NCBI GenBank assembly: GCA_964651935.1
Contig: CAZYZM010000001.1
Span: 1 to 60,535, forward strand
DNA: 60,535 nucleotides
Direction of reading: 5' to 3'
Source of the DNA: an uncultured Candidatus Saccharibacteria bacterium
GTDB taxonomy: Bacteria; Patescibacteriota; Minisyncoccia; Phycocordibacterales; Phycocordibacteraceae
Shown here: one piece after another, positions 3,961-60,516 of the stretch
Layout of the letters: every line of letters starts with the position of its first letter
How positions within the stretch are numbered: the stretch's first letter is position 1
Program-made: the position numbers and the translations under genes
The notes under the pieces: model-generated
The model's database searches: none
What the model was told of the DNA's origin: nothing
Seen by the model: only the letters and a program-made list of their open reading frames with translations

Positions 3961-4092
3961 GTATTGTGAAGCGTACTATCTTTGCGCCCTGTTTTCAAGA
4001 CAATCAGCCTCTTTCATTTGACATGATGGATAAATACTTGTATTTTCTTACCAGCTTCTTCTATCCCCGCTCTTTGAGAGAAAGGACATCAC

Positions 4093-4737
4093 GTGAATCA
4101 CTGCATCGTACACCGCGGCCTCGTCGGCTGCTCGCTCGCCGTACTGCAGGAAGCGTATCTTCCAGAACTTCTGCAATTAGTGAACGATCCGAAGGTGACT
4201 GAAGGAGTCCACCTGACGCCGCCCATCGGCATGCAGGAGGAGCTTGATTGGATTCGGAACCTGCCGAAGAGCAAGGGTATCAATTCCATCTTCGCGGTAC
4301 TTCGCCATGACCAAGATGGCGAGCATTTGCGATATACGTACATCGGCCATACAGGAATTCACGGGATTCGCTGGCCGAGCGGCGTCGGGATAACAGGCTC
4401 TCTATTAGGCAGCCTGGATAACCTGAACAAAGGGTACGGGACCGAAGCGAAGCTCCTGCTTCAGTACCACGCCTTCAAGATTCTCGGGCTCCGGAAACTC
4501 ATTTCCAGCGTGAATGCGTTCAATGCGCGAAGTCTCGGGCATCTTATTAAGTGCGGATACCACATCGTAGGCCGCTATACCGATCAAGAATCTTATAATG
4601 GCGGGTATGCGGACGAAATCCTGCTCGAGATATTCCGCAAGGACTGGGAACCGATATGGGAGCAGTATCAGACTACTCGTACACTGCCGAAGCTCACGGA
4701 AGCGCAGCGCGAACTCGTCCGTAAAGAGACTGTATAA
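4093..4737 (+). CDS. GNAT family N-acetyltransferase (RimJ/RimL-like)
   Basis: 214 aa (GTG start). The acetyl-CoA binding region NKGYGTEAKLLLQYHAFKILGLRKLISSVNAFNARSLGHLIKCGY is typical of Acetyltransf_3-type GNATs. Confidence 0.75.
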   Translation: MNHCIVHRGLVGCSLAVLQEAYLPELLQLVNDPKVTEGVHLTPPIGMQEELDWIRNLPKSKGINSIFAVLRHDQDGEHLRYTYIGHTGIHGIRWPSGVGITGSLLGSLDNLNKGYGTEAKLLLQYHAFKILGLRKLISSVNAFNARSLGHLIKCGYHIVGRYTDQESYNGGYADEILLEIFRKDWEPIWEQYQTTRTLPKLTEAQRELVRKETV

Positions 4738-4753
4738 GAATGATATTGAACCT

Positions 4754-4780
4754 AGCCGCCCCTTCGGGCGGCTTTTCTTT
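4754..4780 (+). terminator. intrinsic terminator after the GNAT gene
   Basis: AGCCGCCC-CTTC-GGGCGGCT: an 8-bp stem followed by TTTCTTT. Confidence 0.8.
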
Positions 4781-5003
4781 ATGAATGTGCCAACCGGACG
4801 ACATACTCCACCAGCAGGAGCGGCGTGAACACGGCCATATAGAGGACCGCGGCCTTCCGGAAGAAATCGTTCACCAGAAGGTACATGATGCGGTCGAGGA
4901 AGCGTTCGAACCGCTCGCCGAAGGGCATGACGAGGCCGCCGAGGTGGTTCTCGAGCCACTGAGGTCCGCCCCCGCCTGAATGCGCGTCGTGATGCTGAGA
5001 CAT
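4779..5003 (-). CDS. hypothetical small protein with a hydrophobic C-terminus
   Basis: 74-aa ORF beginning 7 nt after the stop of the upstream coiled-coil ORF. No recognisable motif and no clear RBS. Confidence 0.35.
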   Translation of the reverse strand: MSQHHDAHSGGGGPQWLENHLGGLVMPFGERFERFLDRIMYLLVNDFFRKAAVLYMAVFTPLLLVEYVVRLAHS

Positions 5004-5010
5004 GCCGTGC

Positions 5011-5340
5011 TTACGCGATCCTTAGCTCGAACGTACGTATACGCTTTCCGTGGTCGATGAGGGTGACTGAATTGGCGTCGACCGCCTGCGCAGTATCGCC
5101 CAGCAATTCCTTCACGTCCTCCATACCTACTTCGAGATTCCCTACCCGCCGGTTCAGTTCATGGGTGACGGACTTCAGCTCATGAACATCAAGCTTCAGC
5201 TCGGGGACATCTGCTCTCAAACTACTGGTATCAGCAATAAGACGCGCAAATCCGTTGCGCATCTCAACAACCAGATTTGCCACCGTATCAGTAAGCGTAT
5301 CCAATCTGCTCTCAATTGTCATAAATCGCGCCTCGCTCAT
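5011..5340 (-). CDS. hypothetical coiled-coil protein
   Basis: 109 aa with heptad-like repeats (VPELKLDVHELKSVTHELNRRVGNLEV). No enzymatic motif. Confidence 0.5.
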   Translation of the reverse strand: MSEARFMTIESRLDTLTDTVANLVVEMRNGFARLIADTSSLRADVPELKLDVHELKSVTHELNRRVGNLEVGMEDVKELLGDTAQAVDANSVTLIDHGKRIRTFELRIA

Positions 5341-5405
5341 AAAAACAGTATATCACCGCGTACTTTACGGAGGTCTTCCGTCGCTATCCACAACAGATTC
5401 TTTTT

Positions 5406-5427
5406 CTCTATCTACTCTCTATCTACT
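5406..5427. repeat. tandem direct repeat, 2 x 11 bp (CTCTATCTACT)
   Basis: Read directly at 5406-5416 and 5417-5427. The repeat lies 66-87 nt upstream of the start codon at 5340 (minus strand). Confidence 0.9.
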
Positions 5428-5456
5428 CCTCAGCCTAGCGTCATGCGCGACCCAGC

Positions 5457-7106
5457 CTATGCCGCGCCCGCCGGAAGCTCCACGATGAACCGCGAACCCT
5501 TCCCCTTCCCCTCTGACTCCGCCCATACCTTGCCGCCGTGCGCCTCGATGATGTTCTTGACGATGTAGAGACCGAATCCGGTGGAATCCACGTTCACCTT
5601 CTGGCTCTCTGCACCGTGGCCGCCTTCGGTGAAGAGGAGCCGCATGTCTTCCGGCGTGATGCCGACGCCGGTGTCCTCGGTCATGAAGCGGATAGTCGTG
5701 CCGTCGGTCGAGAGCGTCGCCGCGATACTGCCCTGCGGCGTGTACTTCACCGCATTGTCCACGAGGTTCTTTATAGCGTTCTCCATCTGCATGCGGTCGC
5801 CCGTGAGCATGATAGGCTCGGACGGCTCGGAAAGCGTGAACGCGACGCCCTTTGCCTCGGCGACCGGCTTCTGCGCCGCGACGATGCCGTCTACGAGCTG
5901 CTTGAAATCGAACGGCTCGTTGGCATACGCGACCTTTCCGCTCTTTATGTTCGCGGCATTCAGGATGTCCTGGATCGTATCTGCGCCCTGGGTCGAAGAC
6001 TTGAACCCTTCCTCGACGATGTCCTTCATGCCCTGCGGCGTCGTGCCGAAGTCGCCTTCCAGGATCATGGAGAAGATGTTGCGCGACTTGGTCACGAAGC
6101 CCTTGAGCTGGTGGGTGATGAAGCGCAGGAGCGCGACCTGCTGCTTGTTGGCGGTCTCGAGGTCATGGGCGAGGAGCTCGATGCGCTGCCGCTGCTCTAT
6201 CTCGCGCTTCACGCTGCGGACGAGGACAAAGCCGACGATTATAGTGAGCAGAAGCGTGACGCCGATGAGAATCAGGTTCGTCGGATTGCGCGTGAAGGTA
6301 AGCTCGGAAGCGATGAGGATGACGAGTGCGATGACGAGCGCTTGCGAAGCGATGAGGCTGGCATGGAATGTCTTGAAGCGTACAAGGAATATGCCGATAA
6401 AGACCATGAACACGATCATGCCGAAGTATCCGTACACTTCGAGCTGTGAATCTGGCAGGAAGCCGATCGTTGTAAGGTACGCGCCCAAGAACTCAACTGT
6501 ATAGAAGGAGAAGAGGAACAGCTCGATGCCGATTCCCATAAGTACGATTTCCTTCTTCATCCCCGGCTCCGCCTTGCGGTACTTCCAGATGAGCAGCCCC
6601 AGTATCCATAGCATCGCGAGCGCGCCAAGCGAGGAGTAATAGGCTTGGAATATAGGGTTCTCAAATCCGAATGCGTCGCAATTCGTGATGTTGAATCCAT
6701 GCAGGCTGAGCTCCGTCGGGGCAATCACGATAGTGGCGCCGACAAGCGCGAGGAAGATAAGCTTCAAGCCGACATGCACATCCTTCTTTTCAAGAAAGAC
6801 GTAGATAAAATATATACTCAGCACTGATATGAGCGCCTGTAGCGGACCGAAGAAGGACCACGAAAAGAGGATGAGATCGCTGTGGATGTTGGTCCAGCTT
6901 ATAAGGTCGAAGAATATCCAAAGGGAGAAAGATGCGCAGATTCCCAAAAGCAGCCGGTTGAGCAAGGACTTTCTATCGTTCAGAAAGACGAAGATTCCCA
7001 CCAGAAGCGGAATAATGATTGCGGGAATGTGCGAGTAATAGATGATTCCAGGCAGATCCGAAACATAAAAGAGGTACAGTGGTTCAGCGAAGTAGTTGCA
7101 GATCAT
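5457..7106 (-). CDS. sensor histidine kinase with a multi-helix (7TM-type) membrane N-terminus
   Basis: 549 aa. About 7-8 hydrophobic helices, then H-box LLRFITHQLKGFV, N-box NLVDNAVKYT, and G-boxes EDTGVGI and GFGLYIV. Confidence 0.9.
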   Translation of the reverse strand: MICNYFAEPLYLFYVSDLPGIIYYSHIPAIIIPLLVGIFVFLNDRKSLLNRLLLGICASFSLWIFFDLISWTNIHSDLILFSWSFFGPLQALISVLSIYFIYVFLEKKDVHVGLKLIFLALVGATIVIAPTELSLHGFNITNCDAFGFENPIFQAYYSSLGALAMLWILGLLIWKYRKAEPGMKKEIVLMGIGIELFLFSFYTVEFLGAYLTTIGFLPDSQLEVYGYFGMIVFMVFIGIFLVRFKTFHASLIASQALVIALVILIASELTFTRNPTNLILIGVTLLLTIIVGFVLVRSVKREIEQRQRIELLAHDLETANKQQVALLRFITHQLKGFVTKSRNIFSMILEGDFGTTPQGMKDIVEEGFKSSTQGADTIQDILNAANIKSGKVAYANEPFDFKQLVDGIVAAQKPVAEAKGVAFTLSEPSEPIMLTGDRMQMENAIKNLVDNAVKYTPQGSIAATLSTDGTTIRFMTEDTGVGITPEDMRLLFTEGGHGAESQKVNVDSTGFGLYIVKNIIEAHGGKVWAESEGKGKGSRFIVELPAGAA

Positions 7107-7121
7107 ACGTGTGTCATATGC

Positions 7122-7487
7122 CTATTCATCTTCCGATACGGCCGCATTCGGTCCGATACATTCCCCATCGCTCTCAGGATCGCAGTATGAGACAGAGCAG
7201 CCGGTATCGCCCTCAAGACAGCTCTGCGCGGCCTCGCAGTCGGTTATGTCGACGCCGCACTCGCGTTCGATATCGGGCGCCCGCTTCTGCATGAGCGCGT
7301 AGGCGTACGTGCTCGTACATTCGTCATCGTCGCAGCCTGTGAAGCACGCCTGAGTCGCAGGATCGCAGTCGACCTCGTACTCGACCACGTAGTCATCGGC
7401 CACCATGAAGCGGTAATAGGAATACCCTGCGGCAAGGACGATGAGCAGGAGAACGGCGTATAGGAGGAAATGGCGGCGAAAATCCAT
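7122..7487 (-). CDS. membrane-anchored acidic Cys-rich protein (10 Cys), function unknown
   Basis: 121 aa with an N-terminal helix FLLYAVLLLIVLAAGYSYY, then 10 cysteines in an Asp/Glu-rich ectodomain. The stop lies 15 nt upstream of the kinase start. Confidence 0.6.
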   Translation of the reverse strand: MDFRRHFLLYAVLLLIVLAAGYSYYRFMVADDYVVEYEVDCDPATQACFTGCDDDECTSTYAYALMQKRAPDIERECGVDITDCEAAQSCLEGDTGCSVSYCDPESDGECIGPNAAVSEDE

Positions 7488-7558
7488 GAAATAGGTGCCT
7501 TACTAAAACTATAGCAAGTACCGGCCGACACAGAGGCGGGGGTGTGTATAGGGGCCAG

Positions 7559-8476
7559 CTAGGGCATGAACAGGATATACGTGCCGATTATCGTCACCAG
7601 CAGCGCGAATACCTTCTGGAAGATGTGCTTCTTGTACATGCGTTCCGAGACCAGTTCAGGAAGGGCGATAAAGAGATAGATGCTCAGAAGGAACGTGAAG
7701 ACCGGCTGATAGGACTCTGCCAGGAGAACGAGACCGATCGGGGCCAGGAGGTATGCGAACGAGAACGCTATGTTGCCGAGCATGTACAGGCTCTCATTCG
7801 CCACGTTCAAGAGCAGGATGCCCTTGGAATTCTCCCGCAGGGCGATGATGAAATGAGTCCGGTACCTTCGGATGAAGAGGAATATGCAGACACCGATGGC
7901 CGTGAGCATGAGGTGTTCCCAGAAGAGCGACCTGACGACGTTCTCTTCTAGAGCGACCGCCTTGAAGATGACCGACTCGAGTCCCCAAAAGAACGCCGCC
8001 ATGAGCATGAGGACTATAGTCTTTGCGCGCAGCTTGAAACGGCTCTCGACATCGAGCTCGAACGAAACCACGGCGGTACCCGCGATGATTATGGCCATAG
8101 CGATGACCTCTCGTGCGCTGAGCGTCTCGCCCAAGATGAAATAACCTAAAATAGCGGCAAAAACCGGGACAAGCTGATAGAAGACGACCGTAATAGACGC
8201 TTCTTCGTTCGCAAGCGCAGCAAGGTAGCACCAGAGCACGAGCGCGTTCAGGAGCCCGACTCCCGCAAGCGCGAGGATGTGCAGGCCGCTCACCTGGAAT
8301 ACGGTCGGGTCGACGAGAAACAGGAACGGCAATGCCAGAGCCGAAAGAAGAGCGGAAAAGATAATCAGCGTCCCTACTCCGCCCTCTTTGAAATACCGCT
8401 CAAGGAGAACCTTGTCGATATGGTTCGTCATCGCGTACAGGAAGGGGCCCACAAGGGCGAGGATGAACCAGGGCAT
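7559..8476 (-). CDS. EamA/DMT superfamily transporter
   Basis: 305 aa with about 10 hydrophobic helices in two similar halves, the typical EamA-repeat layout. Confidence 0.75.
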   Translation of the reverse strand: MPWFILALVGPFLYAMTNHIDKVLLERYFKEGGVGTLIIFSALLSALALPFLFLVDPTVFQVSGLHILALAGVGLLNALVLWCYLAALANEEASITVVFYQLVPVFAAILGYFILGETLSAREVIAMAIIIAGTAVVSFELDVESRFKLRAKTIVLMLMAAFFWGLESVIFKAVALEENVVRSLFWEHLMLTAIGVCIFLFIRRYRTHFIIALRENSKGILLLNVANESLYMLGNIAFSFAYLLAPIGLVLLAESYQPVFTFLLSIYLFIALPELVSERMYKKHIFQKVFALLVTIIGTYILFMP

Positions 8477-8482
8477 AAGATA

Positions 8483-9331
8483 TTAAATTGTTAGCTTTCG
8501 CTTCACTATATCAAGGACTTCCTTCGGGTAGGAAATCCAGTATTCAGGGGATTCTATGGACGTAGGCAGGAGCCGTGAGATGAGCGGGCGATATCCGAAG
8601 GTTTCTTCAACGAACTCGCAGGCAGGGCGCAGGATCTCCGTCACGAACCGGCGTTCATGCGTGTCGTCGACCTGGTAGTCCTCGAACAGGACGCCATGCA
8701 CGAGAAAGAGCGCGAGAAACTTCTTGTAGTGCTCGAGCAGGTCGCCGCGATGATGCCGGTCTATCCATTCCGCGTCCTCCCGCACCTCGACGCGGCCATC
8801 GACGAACTGCGTCAGCAGCTCGCCATGGAAGCCTGCCAGTGATTGCCCCCAGAGGGTGCGTATAGAACCGATCTGCTTTCCATTCGCCGTATTGAAATCA
8901 ATAACTGATATCTTCTGATACCGTTCCCTGTATGCTCCGTCCTTCTGAGCTATGCCTAGGCAGATAGGGAGCTTCCCGAGCGCTTTCTTGAGCGGGTTAT
9001 GCGACACAAATTTGTCTTTCGTGTCCTGCCCGATGACGATCTTCATGCCGCTCGCCTCAGCAAGGTGCACGAAGCGGAGCGTCTCGTAATTCGGCGTGGC
9101 GATATGCCGTGCGAGGTACAGCACCGGCTGGTCCATGAAATACGGGGGCAGGTCCCCGTCCAGGAACTCTTCGACGCGGGCTCGCAGGTCCGTATCCTCG
9201 GACCTGCGCCTGATTTCCTCGATCACGTCCGGATACGGCGTCAGGAGATCGTCCACGAGCGGCGCCAGCGAGCGGGTGCGGGCGAAGAACGGCCGGAACA
9301 CTTTGTACGTCTGGCTACGTAGCCAATTCAT
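8483..9331 (-). CDS. hypothetical protein (no recognised domain)
   Basis: 282-aa soluble-looking ORF packed between speH (53-nt gap) and the DMT transporter (6-nt gap). Confidence 0.65.
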   Translation of the reverse strand: MNWLRSQTYKVFRPFFARTRSLAPLVDDLLTPYPDVIEEIRRRSEDTDLRARVEEFLDGDLPPYFMDQPVLYLARHIATPNYETLRFVHLAEASGMKIVIGQDTKDKFVSHNPLKKALGKLPICLGIAQKDGAYRERYQKISVIDFNTANGKQIGSIRTLWGQSLAGFHGELLTQFVDGRVEVREDAEWIDRHHRGDLLEHYKKFLALFLVHGVLFEDYQVDDTHERRFVTEILRPACEFVEETFGYRPLISRLLPTSIESPEYWISYPKEVLDIVKRKLTI

Positions 9332-9384
9332 GGAGATATATACATACTACCACTTCCCTATGGCGAACGCAGGAACGGTATTGC

Positions 9385-9771
9385 CTACACAAGATTATGC
9401 TCTGGGTATCGGGTACCGCGCTTCACGAAGTGCGTCTCGATGTCTTCCAGTTTGAACCGCTCCTTGAAGAAGCCTGTTATCTTCTCCGTGTCTATCCCAT
9501 TCTGGCACGTGTATACGTCGGCACTCACGAAGCGGCGCTTCGGGAAGGTGTGGATGCTGATATGGCTCTCGGCGATGATGACGAAGCCGCTCCAGCCGCC
9601 CGGATCCTTTATCTGGTTATCCGCAGCCGATATGACTTCCGGGCCGAGAAGCGCGTGCATGCCGAGAGTCGACACGAGGTCGGTGAGGCACGACCGGACT
9701 GCTTCCTCGCTGTCGAGGGCGGCAGGGTCTCCCCCGTATCCGTCAATGGTCACGTGTTCTCCAAAATGCAT
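9385..9771 (-). CDS. speH: S-adenosylmethionine decarboxylase proenzyme, small bacterial class (pyruvoyl enzyme)
   Basis: 128 aa. Self-processing/active-site block FVIIAESHISIHTFP and the downstream DVYTC, as in SpeD/SpeH-type AdoMetDC. Confidence 0.85.
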   Translation of the reverse strand: MHFGEHVTIDGYGGDPAALDSEEAVRSCLTDLVSTLGMHALLGPEVISAADNQIKDPGGWSGFVIIAESHISIHTFPKRRFVSADVYTCQNGIDTEKITGFFKERFKLEDIETHFVKRGTRYPEHNLV

Positions 9772-9838
9772 AGCAGTGAGCGATGATTGGCAATAAGTTC
9801 ACTATAGCAATCATGAGGCGGGTGGTGGAGTTTATTCA

Positions 9839-10330
9839 CTATGCTTGCTTATTAAGCTCTTCTATGGCTTTTTTTTGCTTGCCAATACTAAGAACACCGT
9901 ACTTCTCCCTCTCTACATCGGATATGGAGAGGTCAGTCTTATATAACTTCCATTTTGCATTTTTTCCTGCCTTATAGAATTGTGTGCCGAATTTTTGCGG
10001 TTCGTCCTTTCTCATTAATAATCTATCTGTGCTAGCAGCATATAACCAACCAGCCTTCTTAAGGCCTTTATTAAAACTTAGGAGAGCATATCTTTTCGCA
10101 TGTTCAGAATCTGAAATTGTTACGCCATGATGAAAGATCCACGCGATATAATATAAAGATTTTGAAGACAATCTATTTATATCGCTTCCAACATCAGCAA
10201 GGATATCTTTAATAATTTTTCTCCTTTCCTTATCATGTTTAATGATAACTTCTGGCACTTTTGTACTGGATGACCTCTCTTTAAGGTCCTCCTTATAGAG
10301 AGAGGCTATTTTGCGCTCGAATTCCTTCAT
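9839..10330 (-). CDS. hypothetical Lys-rich protein on the AT-rich islet
   Basis: 163-aa ORF in sequence hand-counted at about 30% GC per 60-nt line. No recognised motif. Confidence 0.6.
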   Translation of the reverse strand: MKEFERKIASLYKEDLKERSSSTKVPEVIIKHDKERRKIIKDILADVGSDINRLSSKSLYYIAWIFHHGVTISDSEHAKRYALLSFNKGLKKAGWLYAASTDRLLMRKDEPQKFGTQFYKAGKNAKWKLYKTDLSISDVEREKYGVLSIGKQKKAIEELNKQA

Positions 10331-10346
10331 CTGAAATATTCTACCA

Positions 10347-10376
10347 AATTAAAAAGGCAGTCTGTATAGACTGCCT
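10347..10376 (-). terminator. intrinsic terminator after the ATP-grasp gene
   Basis: AGGCAGTC-TGTATA-GACTGCCT: an 8-bp stem followed on the minus strand by TTTTTAATT, 5 nt after the stop codon. Confidence 0.8.
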
Positions 10377-10380
10377 CTAG

Positions 10381-11325
10381 TTAAGTCGTAAGTAACTTTG
10401 CCATGGCCCTGGCGAGCGGGTAATTAGTACAAGCTTCAATCCAGGCCCATTGACCATTAGCATTGATTTCAAGGAAGGTATACCCTTCGTCGTTCTTGAT
10501 GAGATCAATTGCTCCAAATTTCAAACCAAATCTCTCTACAATCTCGATGCACTTAGCTTCGATTGCTTCCGGTAAATTGTAGGCAGTGTGCCCTATAATT
10601 CCGTCATCGTAGTGCCTCCAATCAATGCATGTTTTTGCGTTGACTTGGGAATCAATTTTCGCTGAGAAAGCAGATTTTCCGATGACCGTGACCCTTACCT
10701 CATATAATTTCTTTATACAAGGCTGGAATATCCCCGGAGCAAGTCGAAATTCGTCCGAGTAAGAAGAATCTAACAAAGCAGTATCTAATATCTGCGTATA
10801 GATTACCTCACCACTATCTCTGCTTATTTCACCACTGTTCAGAGCTTTATAAACGAGGCCGTCTGAGCCAAACTTGCCATTGAATGCTCTTACCTCATCT
10901 TGAGAATTCGTCATCAGTGTGGGAGGAATGGTAAGCCCAATTTCCTGAGCCACTTTTAACTGTGCTAACTTATTGGAAGCAACTTCAATTGCTTCTGGAT
11001 TACTGACCCATCGAGCATTTCTCATTGAGACCCACAGATTCTTTAAAAAGCTTTTCCATTCGGAATGGACAAAGCTCTCATACTCAGAATCAATGGGTAA
11101 ATCGGGAATGGATCTTCTCCGCAAGTAAACTGCGGAAATATTATTTGTGTCCATGCGCCGTCTTGATGCAATATGAAGCAGCTCCGCACCATCCAGCGTA
11201 AGAGCTATTTCATACTCATATATCGCTTCAGTATTGAGGCGAAAGAACGGCACCCCTAACTTCTCTAATTCCATGGCCACGAGATCAGCATGAACATCAT
11301 CTTTCCTCGTTACTATAAGGATCAT
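10381..11325 (-). CDS. ATP-grasp ribosomal-peptide maturase (MdnB/MdnC, MvdC/MvdD-like graspetide macrocyclase)
   Basis: Start chosen at MILIVTRKDD (ATG 11325), preceded by GGAGGG; the ORF track starts at 11337. Blocks SAVYLRR, NKLAQLKVAQEIGLTIPPT, YEVRVTVIGKSAFSAKIDSQ..IDWR and FGAIDLIKNDEGYTFLEINANGQW follow the microviridin-type ATP-grasp layout as I remember it. Confidence 0.75.
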   Translation of the reverse strand: MILIVTRKDDVHADLVAMELEKLGVPFFRLNTEAIYEYEIALTLDGAELLHIASRRRMDTNNISAVYLRRRSIPDLPIDSEYESFVHSEWKSFLKNLWVSMRNARWVSNPEAIEVASNKLAQLKVAQEIGLTIPPTLMTNSQDEVRAFNGKFGSDGLVYKALNSGEISRDSGEVIYTQILDTALLDSSYSDEFRLAPGIFQPCIKKLYEVRVTVIGKSAFSAKIDSQVNAKTCIDWRHYDDGIIGHTAYNLPEAIEAKCIEIVERFGLKFGAIDLIKNDEGYTFLEINANGQWAWIEACTNYPLARAMAKLLTT

Positions 11326-11356
11326 AGCGCCCTCCATATTGAACTTCTTAAGAATA

Positions 11357-11384
11357 GAGGCGGATTCAGTAATGAATCCGCCTC
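11357..11384 (-). promoter_or_regulatory. perfect 11-bp stem-loop between precursor and maturase (candidate attenuator or partial terminator)
   Basis: GAGGCGGATTC-AGTAAT-GAATCCGCCTC, read directly. It sits 3 nt after the precursor stop codon. Confidence 0.6.
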
Positions 11385-11387
11385 ACT

Positions 11388-11570
11388 TTAATGCGCCTCG
11401 TCGCCGACCTGGTCCCCTCTCGGGGTATATACCGTAGTTGGTGACATATACATCGGATTCACGAGATCCTGTGGATCTCGCAATGACCTTTGCATATCAT
11501 CCGAGTAAGTTAGAGGCGGAGTTGGTACCTCATACCTCTTCTCGGATAGGCGCGCAGCTAAAGGACCCAT
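11388..11570 (-). CDS. candidate graspetide precursor peptide (60 aa)
   Basis: GGAGAG sits 5 nt upstream of the ATG, and a consensus promoter lies upstream. The C-terminal SPTTVYTPRGDQVGDEAH is rich in Thr/Ser donors and Asp/Glu acceptors. It lies immediately upstream of the ATP-grasp gene. Confidence 0.6.
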   Translation of the reverse strand: MGPLAARLSEKRYEVPTPPLTYSDDMQRSLRDPQDLVNPMYMSPTTVYTPRGDQVGDEAH

Positions 11571-11615
11571 TACTTCTCTCCTTAGACTGCGTGGAGGCCG
11601 ATTCCTCCGTGAGGA

Positions 11616-11644
11616 ATATTAACTATAGAATAGTAGATTGTCAA
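11616..11644 (-). promoter_or_regulatory. near-consensus sigma70-type promoter for the precursor gene
   Basis: The minus strand reads TTGACA-atctactattctatagt-TAATAT (17-nt spacer). The -10 element ends about 45 nt upstream of the ATG at 11570. Confidence 0.65.
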
Positions 11645-11664
11645 GTATTCGTCATTAGCATCTC

Positions 11665-13515: not shown

Positions 13516-14106
13516 ATGGACCTCGAAGAGCTTGCCGGCATAGAGCCGGAGTCGCTAGAAACGGAACATGCCGTCTACGAGCTCTTCAAGTGGAGCGTCA
13601 TCCTGAAAGGACTCATCTCGCTGGCCGAGGTGCTGGCCGCGCTCGTGCTCATCCTGGTACCGGAACGGCATATCGTCGCGCTGGTGCAGGCCGCCGCCGC
13701 ATGGCTGTCGGCCCATCTGGGCGCTGCGCCCCTGGCCGGGCACGTTATCGCGGAACTTACCGCCTTCAGCGGCGGCGCGGTGCTCTTCGTCGCCTTTTTC
13801 CTTTTCTCGCGCGGGCTCATCAAGTGCTTCCTCATCTGGGCGCTGCTGCGCAACATCCTCTGGGCGTACCCTGCTTCGCTCGCCGTCATGGGCGCGCTCG
13901 TGCTGTACCAGCTTTACGAGATATTCCTGACCGGCTCGGTCTTCATCATCGGAATCACGGCCTTCGACCTCGTCGTCATCTACTTCATCTGGCGCGAGTG
14001 GCGCATCGTGCTGCGGCATTCGCGCGAACGCCTACGCGCGCCGGTCTTCGCGGCGTCGCGCGGCGAGGAAGAGAAGGAGCGCGAGCAGGAGCAGCGCGAT
14101 ACCTAA
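13516..14106 (+). CDS. DUF2127-like membrane protein
   Basis: 196 aa with 4 hydrophobic helices. The N-terminal YELFKWSVILKGLISLAEVLAAL resembles DUF2127 proteins. The 3' end overlaps the convergent gene by 75 nt. Confidence 0.55.
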   Translation: MDLEELAGIEPESLETEHAVYELFKWSVILKGLISLAEVLAALVLILVPERHIVALVQAAAAWLSAHLGAAPLAGHVIAELTAFSGGAVLFVAFFLFSRGLIKCFLIWALLRNILWAYPASLAVMGALVLYQLYEIFLTGSVFIIGITAFDLVVIYFIWREWRIVLRHSRERLRAPVFAASRGEEEKEREQEQRDT

Positions 14107-16512
14107 GAGGTACGGCCAGGAGAGTGAGAGCAGTCCTGCGGCGGCGGCCTGGTCGCCCGCTTCAGCGGCATGAGCGACGGCTACGCCCGGGAATACCGCT
14201 CCCAGGACGCTGCCCGCGTCTGACGAGCCGTCGGAGCCCGAGCGCGTCATGCTTTCGAGGGCCTCGCCCGTCTGCCCTGCATCCGGCTCGTCTCCGATAA
14301 GGATGACCCTCCCGTTGCCTGCGAAGGTTCCCAGCCGGTTCCCGGCTTCGTCATATACGACCGTAGAGAGCATATAGGTGCCGTGCGGCGCGTCCGCGCC
14401 GAACGACAGGTCGTATGCCAGCGCCACGCCCTCTCCGGAGGAGATGCTGCCGACATCCCATACCTCTTCATGCGCGAGCGTCCCGTCAGGAGCGGAAAGG
14501 ACGTCATGGACGACGATCGGAACCGACGCAGTGCCGTAGTCGTTGACTATCGTGAGGCCCTGGTGGACGGGCGCGCTGCCGTCCGAAGTAACGGTTTCGG
14601 CTGCGCGTTCGACCGAGAGATACGCGAAGGCCGCCGCGCCATTGCCGTCATCGTCGCCGGGCGCCGTGTCTTCACCGTCGTCCTCATCGTCATGATGGTG
14701 CGATTGCGGATGCGGCACGGAGACGGTCGCGGTATCGGTATTGTCGTCATCGTTCGCGTCGGTCTCATGCTCGGTAACCGTGACCGTATTCGTGATGTCC
14801 GTACCCGGCGGCGCGTCAAAGACGGTGCCTTCGTAGGAAACCTCTACCGCGCCGCCGGGCGGTATCGTGCCGAGCTCCCACACGGTGTTCCCGTCTGAAT
14901 CGGCGGCATGCGCCGATGAGGAGTCCCCGACCCGGATATGGTCCTGGTCATAGTCGTCGATGAGCGTTACGTCCGTGGCAGGAGAATCCCCGTTATTTAT
15001 GACGGTGTACGTATAGGTAACGGTATCCCCGTCGCCGACGTCGCTCGGCACGGAGACCTGCTCTCCTACCCAGAGGTCCGGCCGGCCGAAGGCGATGTTT
15101 CCGGTGAAGTCGCCGAATATGTTGATGATCGCCATGATCCAGTTCTTGCCGACGACGTTGGTGTTCGCGATGTTCATCACGTTCGCGCTCGCGAGCGCGT
15201 CGCCCGTGGTTATGAGCGTGGAATGCGCGGCATCGACCTTGTTCTGTCCGGTCAGCGCGAGGACGTCTACCTGGTTGTCGATGTTCGCCGTCGAGGATGC
15301 GCTCACCTGCGTCATGGACTGCGTGCCGCTTCCCGACCCGCCGGCATCGAAGAGCGCGATGGTGCCGTCCGGCCCGTGCGTCCATTGGAGGCCTTCGGGC
15401 GCGCCGAACACCTCTCCGGCCCAGTCGCCCTGCACGCGAAAGAGGATGGATACTGTCGAGCCGCCCAGCATGTCGGTATTTATCTGATTGAAGACGCTGC
15501 CGCGCGACGCGCTCTCGCCGGTCTGTACGGTGCTGGAAGCGGTGCCGCTCACCTCGTTCCCGCCCGATTCGGCATCCGCGTTCACGTCGTTCTGGATATC
15601 CGCGCTGCCGGCGCTCGTAAAGACGCCGGGCGCGAGATTGTTCGCCAAGGAAGAAAGGAAGTTGCTCAGGCTCGGGAAGACGATGTCGCCGTCCACGCCC
15701 TGGAAGGCGTTCATGGTGACGAGGAGGTAGTCGGAGTCGACGATATTCGTATTCGCCAGGTTGATGAGGTTGAGGCCCGCGTACGCGTCGCCCGTGGCGA
15801 TGACCGCATCGCCGGCGTTCTCTATGAGGTTTCCGCCCGAGGTCGCGTTCAGCACGACGGCATTGTGTATGTCCCCTTCGCCCTCGAGATTCACCGATAC
15901 GCCGTCCGTTCCTGCGCAGGCGAAGAGCGCGCATGCGGCGCCCGTAGAGGACGCGCTGCCCAGCGCGCGGAGGTCGATCGTGCCCGTTACCGGATCGACA
16001 TAGTTGAGCATGAGCGCATTGCCGCTCGAGTTCACGAGATTGGTATTCACGATGTTGAGGATGTTGGCGAGCGCGACCGCTGTGCCGGATTCGATGACCG
16101 GGCCGCTGCTGGTCGCGGTCTCACTCGTCGAGGTCGCCTGCGTGGAAGACGCTGCTGCAGGCTCGTCAGGAGCGGCAGGCGGAAGCGGCGTGTCGGGAGT
16201 GGATGATGCGGTGTCGGAAGTCGGCGCGTCTTCTGCAGCGGCCGTGCTGGTCGCGGCCTGCGTCGTGGTGCCGGTGAGCTCGATATCGGGAAGGTCCGGG
16301 GTAGACGATGCGGCCGCATCTGCAGGCGTGCTGCTCGCCACAGCGATATCTTCGTTATCAGTGCCTTCCGCGGCAGGCGTGCTCGACGCTGCGGATACAG
16401 CCGCTTCAGGCTCTTCGGCATACGCGACGCGAGCGCCGGACAGCGCCAGAGGCTCCAGGACGAGCACGCCTGCGAGCGCGACGGCGAATATATTCTTCAG
16501 GGAGGGGTGCAT
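14032..16512 (-). CDS. large secreted, C-terminally membrane-anchored surface protein with 4 internal repeats and a DUF11-like domain
   Basis: 826 aa. Signal peptide MHPSLKNIFAVALAGVLVLEPLALSGARVAYA, followed by Ser/Thr/Ala/Pro-rich linkers. There are four copies of a TG(D/E)AxA..N..NTN..module and a TVTYTYTVINNGDSPATDVTLID (DUF11-type) segment. The C-terminus has a hydrophobic helix plus RRREDRRA. Confidence 0.8.
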   Translation of the reverse strand: MHPSLKNIFAVALAGVLVLEPLALSGARVAYAEEPEAAVSAASSTPAAEGTDNEDIAVASSTPADAAASSTPDLPDIELTGTTTQAATSTAAAEDAPTSDTASSTPDTPLPPAAPDEPAAASSTQATSTSETATSSGPVIESGTAVALANILNIVNTNLVNSSGNALMLNYVDPVTGTIDLRALGSASSTGAACALFACAGTDGVSVNLEGEGDIHNAVVLNATSGGNLIENAGDAVIATGDAYAGLNLINLANTNIVDSDYLLVTMNAFQGVDGDIVFPSLSNFLSSLANNLAPGVFTSAGSADIQNDVNADAESGGNEVSGTASSTVQTGESASRGSVFNQINTDMLGGSTVSILFRVQGDWAGEVFGAPEGLQWTHGPDGTIALFDAGGSGSGTQSMTQVSASSTANIDNQVDVLALTGQNKVDAAHSTLITTGDALASANVMNIANTNVVGKNWIMAIINIFGDFTGNIAFGRPDLWVGEQVSVPSDVGDGDTVTYTYTVINNGDSPATDVTLIDDYDQDHIRVGDSSSAHAADSDGNTVWELGTIPPGGAVEVSYEGTVFDAPPGTDITNTVTVTEHETDANDDDNTDTATVSVPHPQSHHHDDEDDGEDTAPGDDDGNGAAAFAYLSVERAAETVTSDGSAPVHQGLTIVNDYGTASVPIVVHDVLSAPDGTLAHEEVWDVGSISSGEGVALAYDLSFGADAPHGTYMLSTVVYDEAGNRLGTFAGNGRVILIGDEPDAGQTGEALESMTRSGSDGSSDAGSVLGAVFPGVAVAHAAEAGDQAAAAGLLSLSWPYLLGIALLLLALLLFLAARRREDRRA

Positions 16513-60376: not shown

Positions 60377-60442
60377 AGGTCGAACTATATCCTTCGAACC
60401 TGAATATTCCCTGAAGCTGGGCGGCATGAGCCGCGAGGCATG

Positions 60443-60516
60443 TCCACCCTCTTGGACTCGAACCAAGGACCCTCGAGGTATAAGCTCGATGCTCTAACCA
60501 ACTGAGCTAAGGGTGG
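60443..60516 (-). tRNA. tRNA-Ile (anticodon TAT)
   Basis: Reverse complement is CCACCCT-TA-GCTC-AGTTGGTTA-GAGC-A-TCGAG-CTTATAC-CTCGA-GGGTC-CTTGG-TTCGAGT-CCAAG-AGGGTGG-A. All stems are perfect and the anticodon is UAU. Confidence 0.85.

Follow-up and report, generated by a model that had tools for sequence, protein, structure and literature searches.

A probable horizontally acquired three-gene graspetide cassette in a high-GC bacterium from the candidate phyla radiation

We analysed a 60,535-nt stretch of DNA, contig CAZYZM010000001.1 (hereafter the window, meaning the whole stretch), in which a compact minus-strand unit lies between the genes of an ABC transporter and of AdoMetDC. We consider it very probable (roughly 0.8) that this region is a self-contained, horizontally acquired three-gene cassette for a graspetide, an omega-ester member of the ribosomally synthesised peptides with post-translational modifications (RiPPs), in a high-GC Parcubacteria bacterium of the candidate phyla radiation (CPR). 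The three genes encode a precursor peptide, an ATP-grasp ligase and a divergent DUF6624 protein (Table 1). This reading is carried by the family of the enzyme, by a precursor that is conserved and coding, by the synteny of the three genes, by a conserved hairpin in the precursor-ligase spacer and by an islet whose empty counterpart was found in a relative. The LigA protein encoded in the window is 78-85% identical to proteins of the Parcubacteria group/Paceibacterota, and therefore the host is a CPR bacterium. Loci and contigs used for comparison carry handles of the form L001.

The ligase and its precursor peptide

From the NCBIfam searches, we observed that the ligase matched graspetide maturase models best, namely TIGR04187 (2.3e-63), MvdC (2.2e-61), MvdD (1.7e-52) and the grasp-with-spasm model (3e-37), whereas the RimK model TIGR00768 gave 1.8e-11 (43.9 bits, cut-off 143.4) and glutathione synthase ~1e-3. 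Among Pfam domains, the MvdD pre-ATP-grasp domain PF21068 was found at 8.9e-12 (45.6 bits versus a cut-off of 27), and PF08443 reached an E-value of 0.0016 (18.5 bits, under its cut-off of 21). The bit scores against the maturase models were 214 for TIGR04187 (SAV_5884; curated cut-off 350), 208 for TIGR04185 (MvdC; 425), 179 for TIGR04184 (MvdD; 475) and 129 for TIGR04192 (230). As all of these lie under the curated cut-offs, the ligase falls outside the curated equivalogs and forms a related but separate subfamily.

The structural comparisons gave a consistent picture. When the protein was searched against the sequences of the PDB, its sole matches were MdnB (6e-41), AMdnB, MdnC, CdnC, 9bou (PruB) and PsnB. 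An AlphaFold (AF2) model built from 28 homologues had a predicted local distance difference test score (pLDDT) of 93, and in a Foldseek search with this model ranks 1-32 were all occupied by graspetide macrocyclases, led by MdnC (8.5e-30, template modelling (TM) score 0.87-0.88); RimK and LysX started at rank 33 with ~1e-16. Residues D274, E286 and N288, which belong to the Mg/ATP residues in AIDLI...FLEINANGQW, were invariant among the 28 homologues, and the ExN Mg/ATP motif lies within FLEINANGQW. The closest homologues are 44-58% identical and come from metagenomes and from CPR bacteria (Saccharibacteria, Patescibacteria, Parcubacteria and two Wolfebacteria).

We therefore concluded that the ligase is a microviridin-type graspetide macrocyclase. 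A preliminary description of this DNA had proposed an MdnB/MdnC-like macrocyclase of 314 aa with its own GGAGGG ribosome-binding site (RBS), as opposed to a RimK-, Ddl- or GshB-type ligase. The gene and its RBS are indeed present on the minus strand, and NCBIfam, Pfam, PDB-sequence and Foldseek searches agree on the assignment, the best matches of the profile hidden Markov model (HMM) and structure searches being graspetide maturases of the MdnB/MdnC/MvdD type. We took the start of the gene at the ATG at 11325, where homologues begin with MILIVT; the mechanical list of open reading frames (ORFs) starts four codons earlier.

Immediately upstream of the ligase lies a 60-aa ORF that carries no annotation in the public record. 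At every related ligase locus, a homologous ORF of 60-72 aa occupies the same place, and an AAGGAG-type RBS precedes it in nearly all of them. In an alignment of 19 precursor sequences, P3, Y22, Q27, T45 and D57 were invariant and S23 and E58 nearly so, while S43, T49 and D53 of the core were present in most sequences. The invariant P3 sits within a leader motif, (V/I)P(F/L)xAxF/L, that fits the Phhx(1,2)h pattern of PMC8939145, and Y22 and Q27 form a conserved YSxxxQ motif; the window precursor has PLAARL (residues 3-8) and YSDDMQ at these positions. The C-terminus is tightly constrained to D-E-(A/S)-(H/C). The core of the window peptide, SPTTVYTPRGDQVGDEAH, is free of Lys. Thus, two of the features by which a graspetide is recognised are present: an adjacent precursor with a leader motif, and a core with Ser/Thr donors and Asp/Glu acceptors.

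We compared the window precursor with that of L001 codon by codon. The amino-acid identity (73%) exceeded the nucleotide identity (64%), synonymous codon changes outnumbered non-synonymous ones (28 versus 16), and 39 of the 65 nucleotide differences fell on third positions. As the amino-acid identity is above the nucleotide identity and the codon changes are mostly synonymous and at third positions, the ORF is a real gene, and from its sequence pattern we regard it as a genuine conserved graspetide precursor under purifying selection. The proposal that the 60-aa ORF with its own RBS is the precursor is thus borne out by its homologues upstream of the ligase, by the invariant residues and by the codon pattern.

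When 1.84 billion representative proteins were searched exhaustively with phmmer, just seven further small relatives of the precursor came to light. One of them, P0134, has the exact microviridin leader PFFARFL together with a TKYPT core, and its core SPTKYPTNLNDEGQDEAH resembles the KYPSD motif of microviridins; judged from this sequence, P0134 suggests that the precursor family derives from microviridin-like ancestors. Three other candidates, P0130, P0132 and P0138, were rejected as relatives, being long Pro/Asp/Gly-rich repeat proteins. No second copy of the precursor or the ligase was found within the window. The string GDEAH of the precursor tail did not occur in the accessible portions of the supplementary text of PMC8939145 or PMC13097080, and the Wolfebacteria and Parcubacteria accessions of the related loci did not occur in the accessible portions of the PMC8939145 supplements. 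The precursor family of the window is probably undescribed, within a kind of system that has been described.

On the basis of these data, we propose the following course of events. A sigma-70-like promoter and a strong RBS would yield an abundant 60-aa precursor, and a stem-loop in the precursor-ligase spacer would either end part of the transcripts or protect the processed precursor mRNA, so that the precursor would be in excess over the ligase. The ligase would recognise the leader through PLAARL, the counterpart of PFFARFL in microviridins, and through YSxxxQ. It would then activate side-chain carboxylates of Asp and Glu in the core as acyl-phosphates with ATP and, as in the mechanism of its family, close macrolactone rings onto hydroxyls of Thr and Ser. 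The conserved link would join Thr45 to Asp57 or Glu58, Thr49 and Asp53 could form a further ring, and up to three rings are possible. Because the core has no Lys, only ester rings are expected. The DUF6624-like protein may serve as a partner, tailoring or protective factor.

Expression signals and the third gene

Upstream of the precursor, the preliminary description had pointed to a near-perfect promoter, TTGACA-17-TAATAT, which is present and matches the consensus at 10 of 12 positions. Taken alone such a match is not enriched, since four promoter-like matches of at least 9/12 were observed in this AT-rich region versus 3.9 expected. Six of the 12 related loci, however, have a match of at least 10/12 upstream of the precursor, in each case including a perfect TTGACA; ~0.5 would be expected, and none of 500 shuffles gave as many as six. 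A short inverted repeat, GGAGG-AATCGG-CCTCC (11592..11607, minus strand), also lies in the 5' untranslated region, past the -10 element and ahead of the RBS of the precursor.

A hairpin between precursor and ligase had likewise been described, as a perfect 11-bp stem-loop starting 3 nt past the precursor stop codon. Its position and perfect pairing hold, and its stem is 12 bp long, not 11. The fold energy is -23.6 kcal/mol (z = -3.5), and in 200 shuffles no fold was as stable. In all 12 related loci the spacer holds a GC-rich stem-loop, 8-20 bp long, with z-scores from -1.6 to -5.2 (at or below -2.85 in 11 of them); the stem sequences are unrelated to each other. We consider that this hairpin may act as a partial terminator, or that it may stabilise the 3' end of the processed precursor mRNA.

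Stem-loops that follow the precursor gene are a feature of other RiPP systems, nisA (nisin) and lasso peptide precursor genes among them. A further one is the intercistronic stem-loop after pbtA of the thiopeptide GE2270A (PMC8269224). The pbtA-type stem-loops share with the window hairpin a stable structure right after the precursor stop, ahead of the gene of the modification enzyme, and are thought to set a high precursor:enzyme ratio. For the window we infer such an effect, and a U-run is found in only some members of the family.

Downstream of the ligase, the strong intrinsic terminator claimed earlier is there, as an 11-pair stem with a T-run. A hairpin followed by a T-run after the ligase also occurs in L004, L009, L010/L011/L087 and L089.

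The unit had been described as a minimal one-enzyme pathway that ended at 10347. This did not hold: it extends further to a third gene, which shares the low GC content of the cassette; of 12 distinct loci, 10 have a homologue of it (35-49% identity) immediately downstream of the ligase. The third gene belongs to the cassette. Its 163-aa product matches the DUF6624 model PF20329 weakly, below the Pfam threshold (E = 0.066, 13 bits versus a cut-off of 27); all seven members of the third-gene family that were compared match this model weakly (best 1.5e-5), one relative bears a precomputed PF20329 annotation, and hhalign against canonical DUF6624 gave a probability of 93%. The window protein has the motifs FHHG, TDRLL and PQKFGTQ, and the family-invariant motifs FxH, TDRLL and PQKFGTQ match the "cluster 23" alignment of PMC8939145. 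The invariant polar residues are H68, D102, R103, Q112, K113 and Q117. From its hydrophilic N-terminus, the subfamily is cytoplasmic.

In the AF2 model (pLDDT 92.6), this protein folds as a helical repeat to which a small beta element is added. Foldseek returned no significant PDB or BFVD neighbour for it (the best were TPR/Sel1-like, E at least 0.06, TM below 0.5), and a profile search of PDB sequences gave no match. Our preferred guess is that the protein is a peptide-binding partner or a tailoring protein for the precursor or the ligase.

The start of the third gene differs from those of the other two. No Shine-Dalgarno sequence precedes it in the window (10331..10352), nor in L004, L007, L008, L009, L010, L011 and L089, and its ATG lies 0-25 nt past the T-run of the ligase terminator in the window and the related loci. 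An extended -10-like sequence, TGnTAnAnT, stands 6-7 nt ahead of the ATG in the window, L007 and L008. In L008, TGGTATATT lies 7 nt upstream of the ATG, and in L007 the same TGGTATATT lies 6 nt upstream of an in-frame ATG that aligns with the L008 start; this ATG was taken as the L007 start in place of an earlier in-frame one. Speculatively, the third gene may be read from a separate leaderless transcript.

Two observations on the neighbourhood of related cassettes may be added. In L004/L005:6006-8818, the DUF6624-like gene after the ligase is followed ~1 kb on by a second, canonical DUF6624 gene and then a radical SAM gene. In the cassette's closest relative, L001:2232-3693 (ligase 58% identical), the DUF6624 gene is missing; instead, the precursor gene is directly preceded on its own strand by genes of JmjC/cupin-type and UCP032817-like proteins, which may be alternative tailoring genes.

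Table 1. Features of the cassette, with positions in the window
Feature	Position	Strand	Basis
Low-GC islet of ~1.8 kb, whole cassette between the host ABC and AdoMetDC genes	9839..11664		composition and empty site
Sigma-70-like promoter, TTGACA (11644..11639), 17 nt, TAATAT (11621..11616)	11616..11644	-	10/12 consensus match; function predicted
Shine-Dalgarno sequence AAGGAGAG, 5 nt upstream of the precursor ATG	11576..11583	-	read from sequence
Graspetide precursor gene, 60 aa, MGPLAARLSEKRYEVPTPPLTYSDDMQRSLRDPQDLVNPMYMSPTTVYTPRGDQVGDEAH	11388..11570	-	homology, synteny, codon pattern
Intercistronic stem-loop, perfect 12-bp stem GAGGCGGATTCA/TGAATCCGCCTC, 4-nt loop, then UAUUCUU	11357..11384	-	inverted-repeat search, folding
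Shine-Dalgarno sequence GGAGGG, 4 nt upstream of the ligase ATG	11330..11335	-	read from sequence
Graspetide ATP-grasp macrocyclase, MdnB/MdnC/MvdD type, 314 aa	10381..11325	-	HMM, PDB-sequence and fold searches
Terminator-like hairpin, 11-pair stem (10353..10378), then T-run TTTTTAATTT	10343..10378	-	sequence scan
Extended -10-like sequence TGGTAGAAT, 7 nt upstream of the third-gene ATG	10338..10346	-	read from sequence; function speculative
Divergent DUF6624 protein (Makarova "cluster 23"), 163 aa	9839..10330	-	synteny, homology, third-position GC content 0.35

The islet and the competing explanations

The cassette is a horizontally acquired islet. The GC content of the islet is 35-48% versus 60-65% in the flanks; its three genes have a GC content of 37-52% and a GC content at third codon positions (GC3) of 0.35-0.51, and the flanking host genes have 56-66% and 0.71-0.85, respectively. 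In L103, a metagenome contig of a relative, the orthologs of the ABC gene (78%) and the AdoMetDC gene (77%) lie 75 nt apart with no cassette in between, and the window spacer 9772..9838 aligns with this 75-nt spacer. From the empty site and the alignment of the spacers, we concluded that the 1.8-kb unit was inserted right at the ABC stop codon.

At the ends of the islet no integrase or transposase was found, and a search there for repeats and target-site duplications gave only short, chance-level matches. Nothing pointed to a phage origin either, as the relatives of the ligase in IMG/VR are all at most 36% identical and PADLOC gave no match. In L094, L096, L097 and L103 the genes downstream of the ABC ortholog differ from one relative to the next: they include a second ABC gene, a homologue of the 282-aa protein of the window or, as the direct neighbour, AdoMetDC. 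The site therefore seems to be a variable hot spot. Mobile or accessory genes neighbour several related cassettes, namely a DDE transposase fragment, RhuM and Zeta toxin, and RES toxin (L002:2045-2317; L087:422-2330; L091:1496-2143), which is consistent with the cassette residing in variable regions of genomes.

Several points weigh against a complete and functioning three-gene cassette. No NCBIfam graspetide model reaches its curated cut-off for the ligase. We infer the formation, number and topology of the rings, and no product has been observed. The U-run after the spacer hairpin is confined to some loci, and hence this hairpin may not terminate transcription. L001 and L091 have no DUF6624 gene downstream of the ligase, and where that gene is present, the terminator before it and the missing Shine-Dalgarno sequence speak against simple co-transcription. 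The cassette encodes neither a leader peptidase nor an exporter, so that maturation and release would proceed without a gene of its own. Finally, the composition of the islet is unameliorated, which indicates a recent arrival.

The terminator, the absent Shine-Dalgarno sequence and the TGnTAnAnT element that the window shares with L007 and L008 ahead of the ATG, which is compatible with a separate leaderless transcript, bear on the role of the third gene. They would also fit a DUF6624-like gene that is non-biosynthetic, acting in self-protection or regulation or travelling as an independent passenger with its own promoter. The model of the protein, which suggests a TPR/Sel1-like scaffold for peptide binding and in which no catalytic fold can be recognised, agrees with this, as does the fact that L001 and L091 retain the precursor C-terminus without the gene in cis. 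However, the gene keeps a tight synteny over distant CPR lineages (Saccharibacteria, Wolfebacteria and Parcubacteria), its invariant polar residues are suggestive of an active site or a binding site, a point that was also made by the authors of PMC8939145, and the dependence of a graspetide synthetase on a partner protein has a precedent (PMC13097080). We regard the non-biosynthetic role as a serious alternative, though one with less than an even chance.

A more far-reaching version of the biosynthetic role, which we put forward tentatively and think rather unlikely, is that the graspetide pathway cannot do without the cytoplasmic DUF6624-like protein, which would be a partner or tailoring component of a new type, and that the unit is a plug-in module moving among CPR lineages without a recognisable mobility gene. 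In that case, the protein might present the leader or the D-E-(A/S)-(H/C) tail to the ligase, or act as the leader peptidase.

The foreign composition also raises the question of whether the islet is recently landed cargo that is silent or non-functional in its host. The lack of a peptidase and an exporter in the cassette, and the accessory regions with toxin-antitoxin and transposase genes in which related cassettes lie, would suit such cargo. On the other hand, the three ORFs are intact and full-length relative to their homologues, and the expression signals are intact as well, from the promoter and the two RBSs to the hairpin and the terminator. We therefore find silent cargo improbable and retain the acquired, self-contained cassette as the preferred reading.

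An MsbA-type ABC gene on the same strand had been suggested in the preliminary description as a possible exporter of the product. Its stop codon does lie 94 nt before the precursor ATG, as had been stated, and among the accessory genes of graspetide clusters those of ABC exporters occur most often (PMC8939145, Table 1). Together with the terminator between the ligase and the third gene, and the absence of the third gene from L001 and L091, this could point to a minimal two-gene, one-enzyme pathway whose product leaves through the adjacent transporter. But the ABC gene has the composition of the host (GC3 0.85, versus 0.35-0.51 in the cassette) and has no C39 peptidase domain, which RiPP exporters typically carry; no ABC homologue was found near the cassette at any related CPR locus; and in L103 the ABC ortholog abuts AdoMetDC without the cassette. 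With the third gene in 10 of 12 loci and of islet composition, the synteny and the empty site largely refute this pathway, which we judge very improbable, and the ABC exporter was rejected as a part of the cassette.

That the ligase is instead a housekeeping enzyme of the RimK/glutathione/LysX type and the 60-aa ORF a chance ORF is scarcely credible: the weak TIGR00768 and sub-threshold PF08443 matches, the label "S6 glutaminyl transferase" on the PHROG family that the ligase matches, and the RimK-like names of several database homologues stand against maturase models that fit better by about 50 orders of magnitude, PDB-sequence and fold searches that rank all graspetide macrocyclases above RimK and LysX, and an ORF that is conserved, syntenic and under purifying selection, so that the homology alone already refutes it.

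Relation to known systems and other features of the window

RiPP clusters had been considered unexpected in this genome. This does not apply, as the host is a CPR bacterium and CPR graspetide clusters with a DUF6624 partner have been published (PMC8939145, PMC13097080). Makarova et al. (2022) described CPR graspetide clusters with a Phhx(1,2)h leader, TxxxT...D...D cores and an associated cluster 23 protein (PMC8939145). Compared with their clusters of ATP-grasp branches 1 and 2 with the cluster 23 protein, the window has the same kind of host and a small precursor right upstream of an MvdD-type ATP-grasp enzyme. PLAARL is the counterpart of the leader motif, T45xxxT49xxxD53xxxD57 that of the core, and the adjacent uncharacterised protein has conserved His, Asp-Arg and (Y/F)GTQ motifs in both. 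The window differs in a T-D spacing shorter than their Tx(6-10)D signature and in a cluster 23 homologue without signal peptide or lipobox, unlike many of their members, which are lipoproteins.

Carter et al. (2026) extended RODEO to 43 graspetide groups, found DUF6624 at high frequency in groups 18, 20, 23 and 42, and suggested it as a possible undiscovered biosynthetic enzyme (PMC13097080). Their group 42, with 22 clusters from candidate phyla of which 82% have DUF6624, resembles the window in its candidate-phyla origin and its three-gene architecture of precursor, synthetase and DUF6624, where the third protein of the window is a DUF6624 homologue below the Pfam threshold. The single representative precursor of this group that we compared (Ca. 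Komeilibacteria, 48 aa) gave an hhalign probability of 0.1% against our 19-sequence profile, so that no similarity between the two could be detected.

The best neighbours of the ligase in sequence and structure belong to the microviridin pathway (group 1; MdnA with MdnB and MdnC, or MvdC and MvdD), and both families have a leader of the PFFARFL type. Microviridins use two ATP-grasp ligases, one for the esters and one for the amide, whereas the window cassette has one. The microviridin core, TxKYPSDx(E/D)(D/E), also carries a Lys-Glu lactam; the window core lacks both the motif and Lys, and no lactam is expected. Microviridin clusters contain GNAT and ABC genes; in the islet a GNAT gene is absent, as is an ABC gene dedicated to the cassette. 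The hosts differ as well, being cyanobacteria or Bacteroidota for microviridins and a CPR bacterium for the window.

We know of no graspetide from the CPR that has been characterised so far. The cassette would be a convenient test case, as it is 1.8 kb long, has boundaries set by the empty site of a relative and intact expression signals, and offers a well-defined precursor family, in which one Thr-Asp pair is invariant, as well as models of both proteins at high confidence. It could address the function of DUF6624 and the use of such peptides by ultra-small symbiotic bacteria. Few accessory genes are as common in graspetide clusters as that of DUF6624, the "cluster 23" protein, and we see the function of DUF6624 as the most valuable aspect of the finding. 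The case also illustrates the horizontal movement of a RiPP cassette between CPR lineages of very different GC content.

Some further features of the window deserve mention. The region 4000..9800, with genes of a histidine kinase, an EamA transporter, a 282-aa protein and AdoMetDC, has a GC content of ~54-58% versus ~64% elsewhere, with a host-like GC3 of 0.71-0.78. The minus-strand gene at 14032..16512 encodes an 826-aa Ala/Ser/Thr/Asp-rich protein for which NCBIfam-type searches of the neighbouring large ORFs gave no family match; with its N-terminal signal-like segment and C-terminal hydrophobic anchor, it is probably a surface protein. An Rfam search of the window returned tRNAs only. Among the tRNAs are a truncated one at the very start of the contig (1..55) and, at 60442..60516, a tRNA-Ile whose anticodon, TAT, is not a common one in bacteria.

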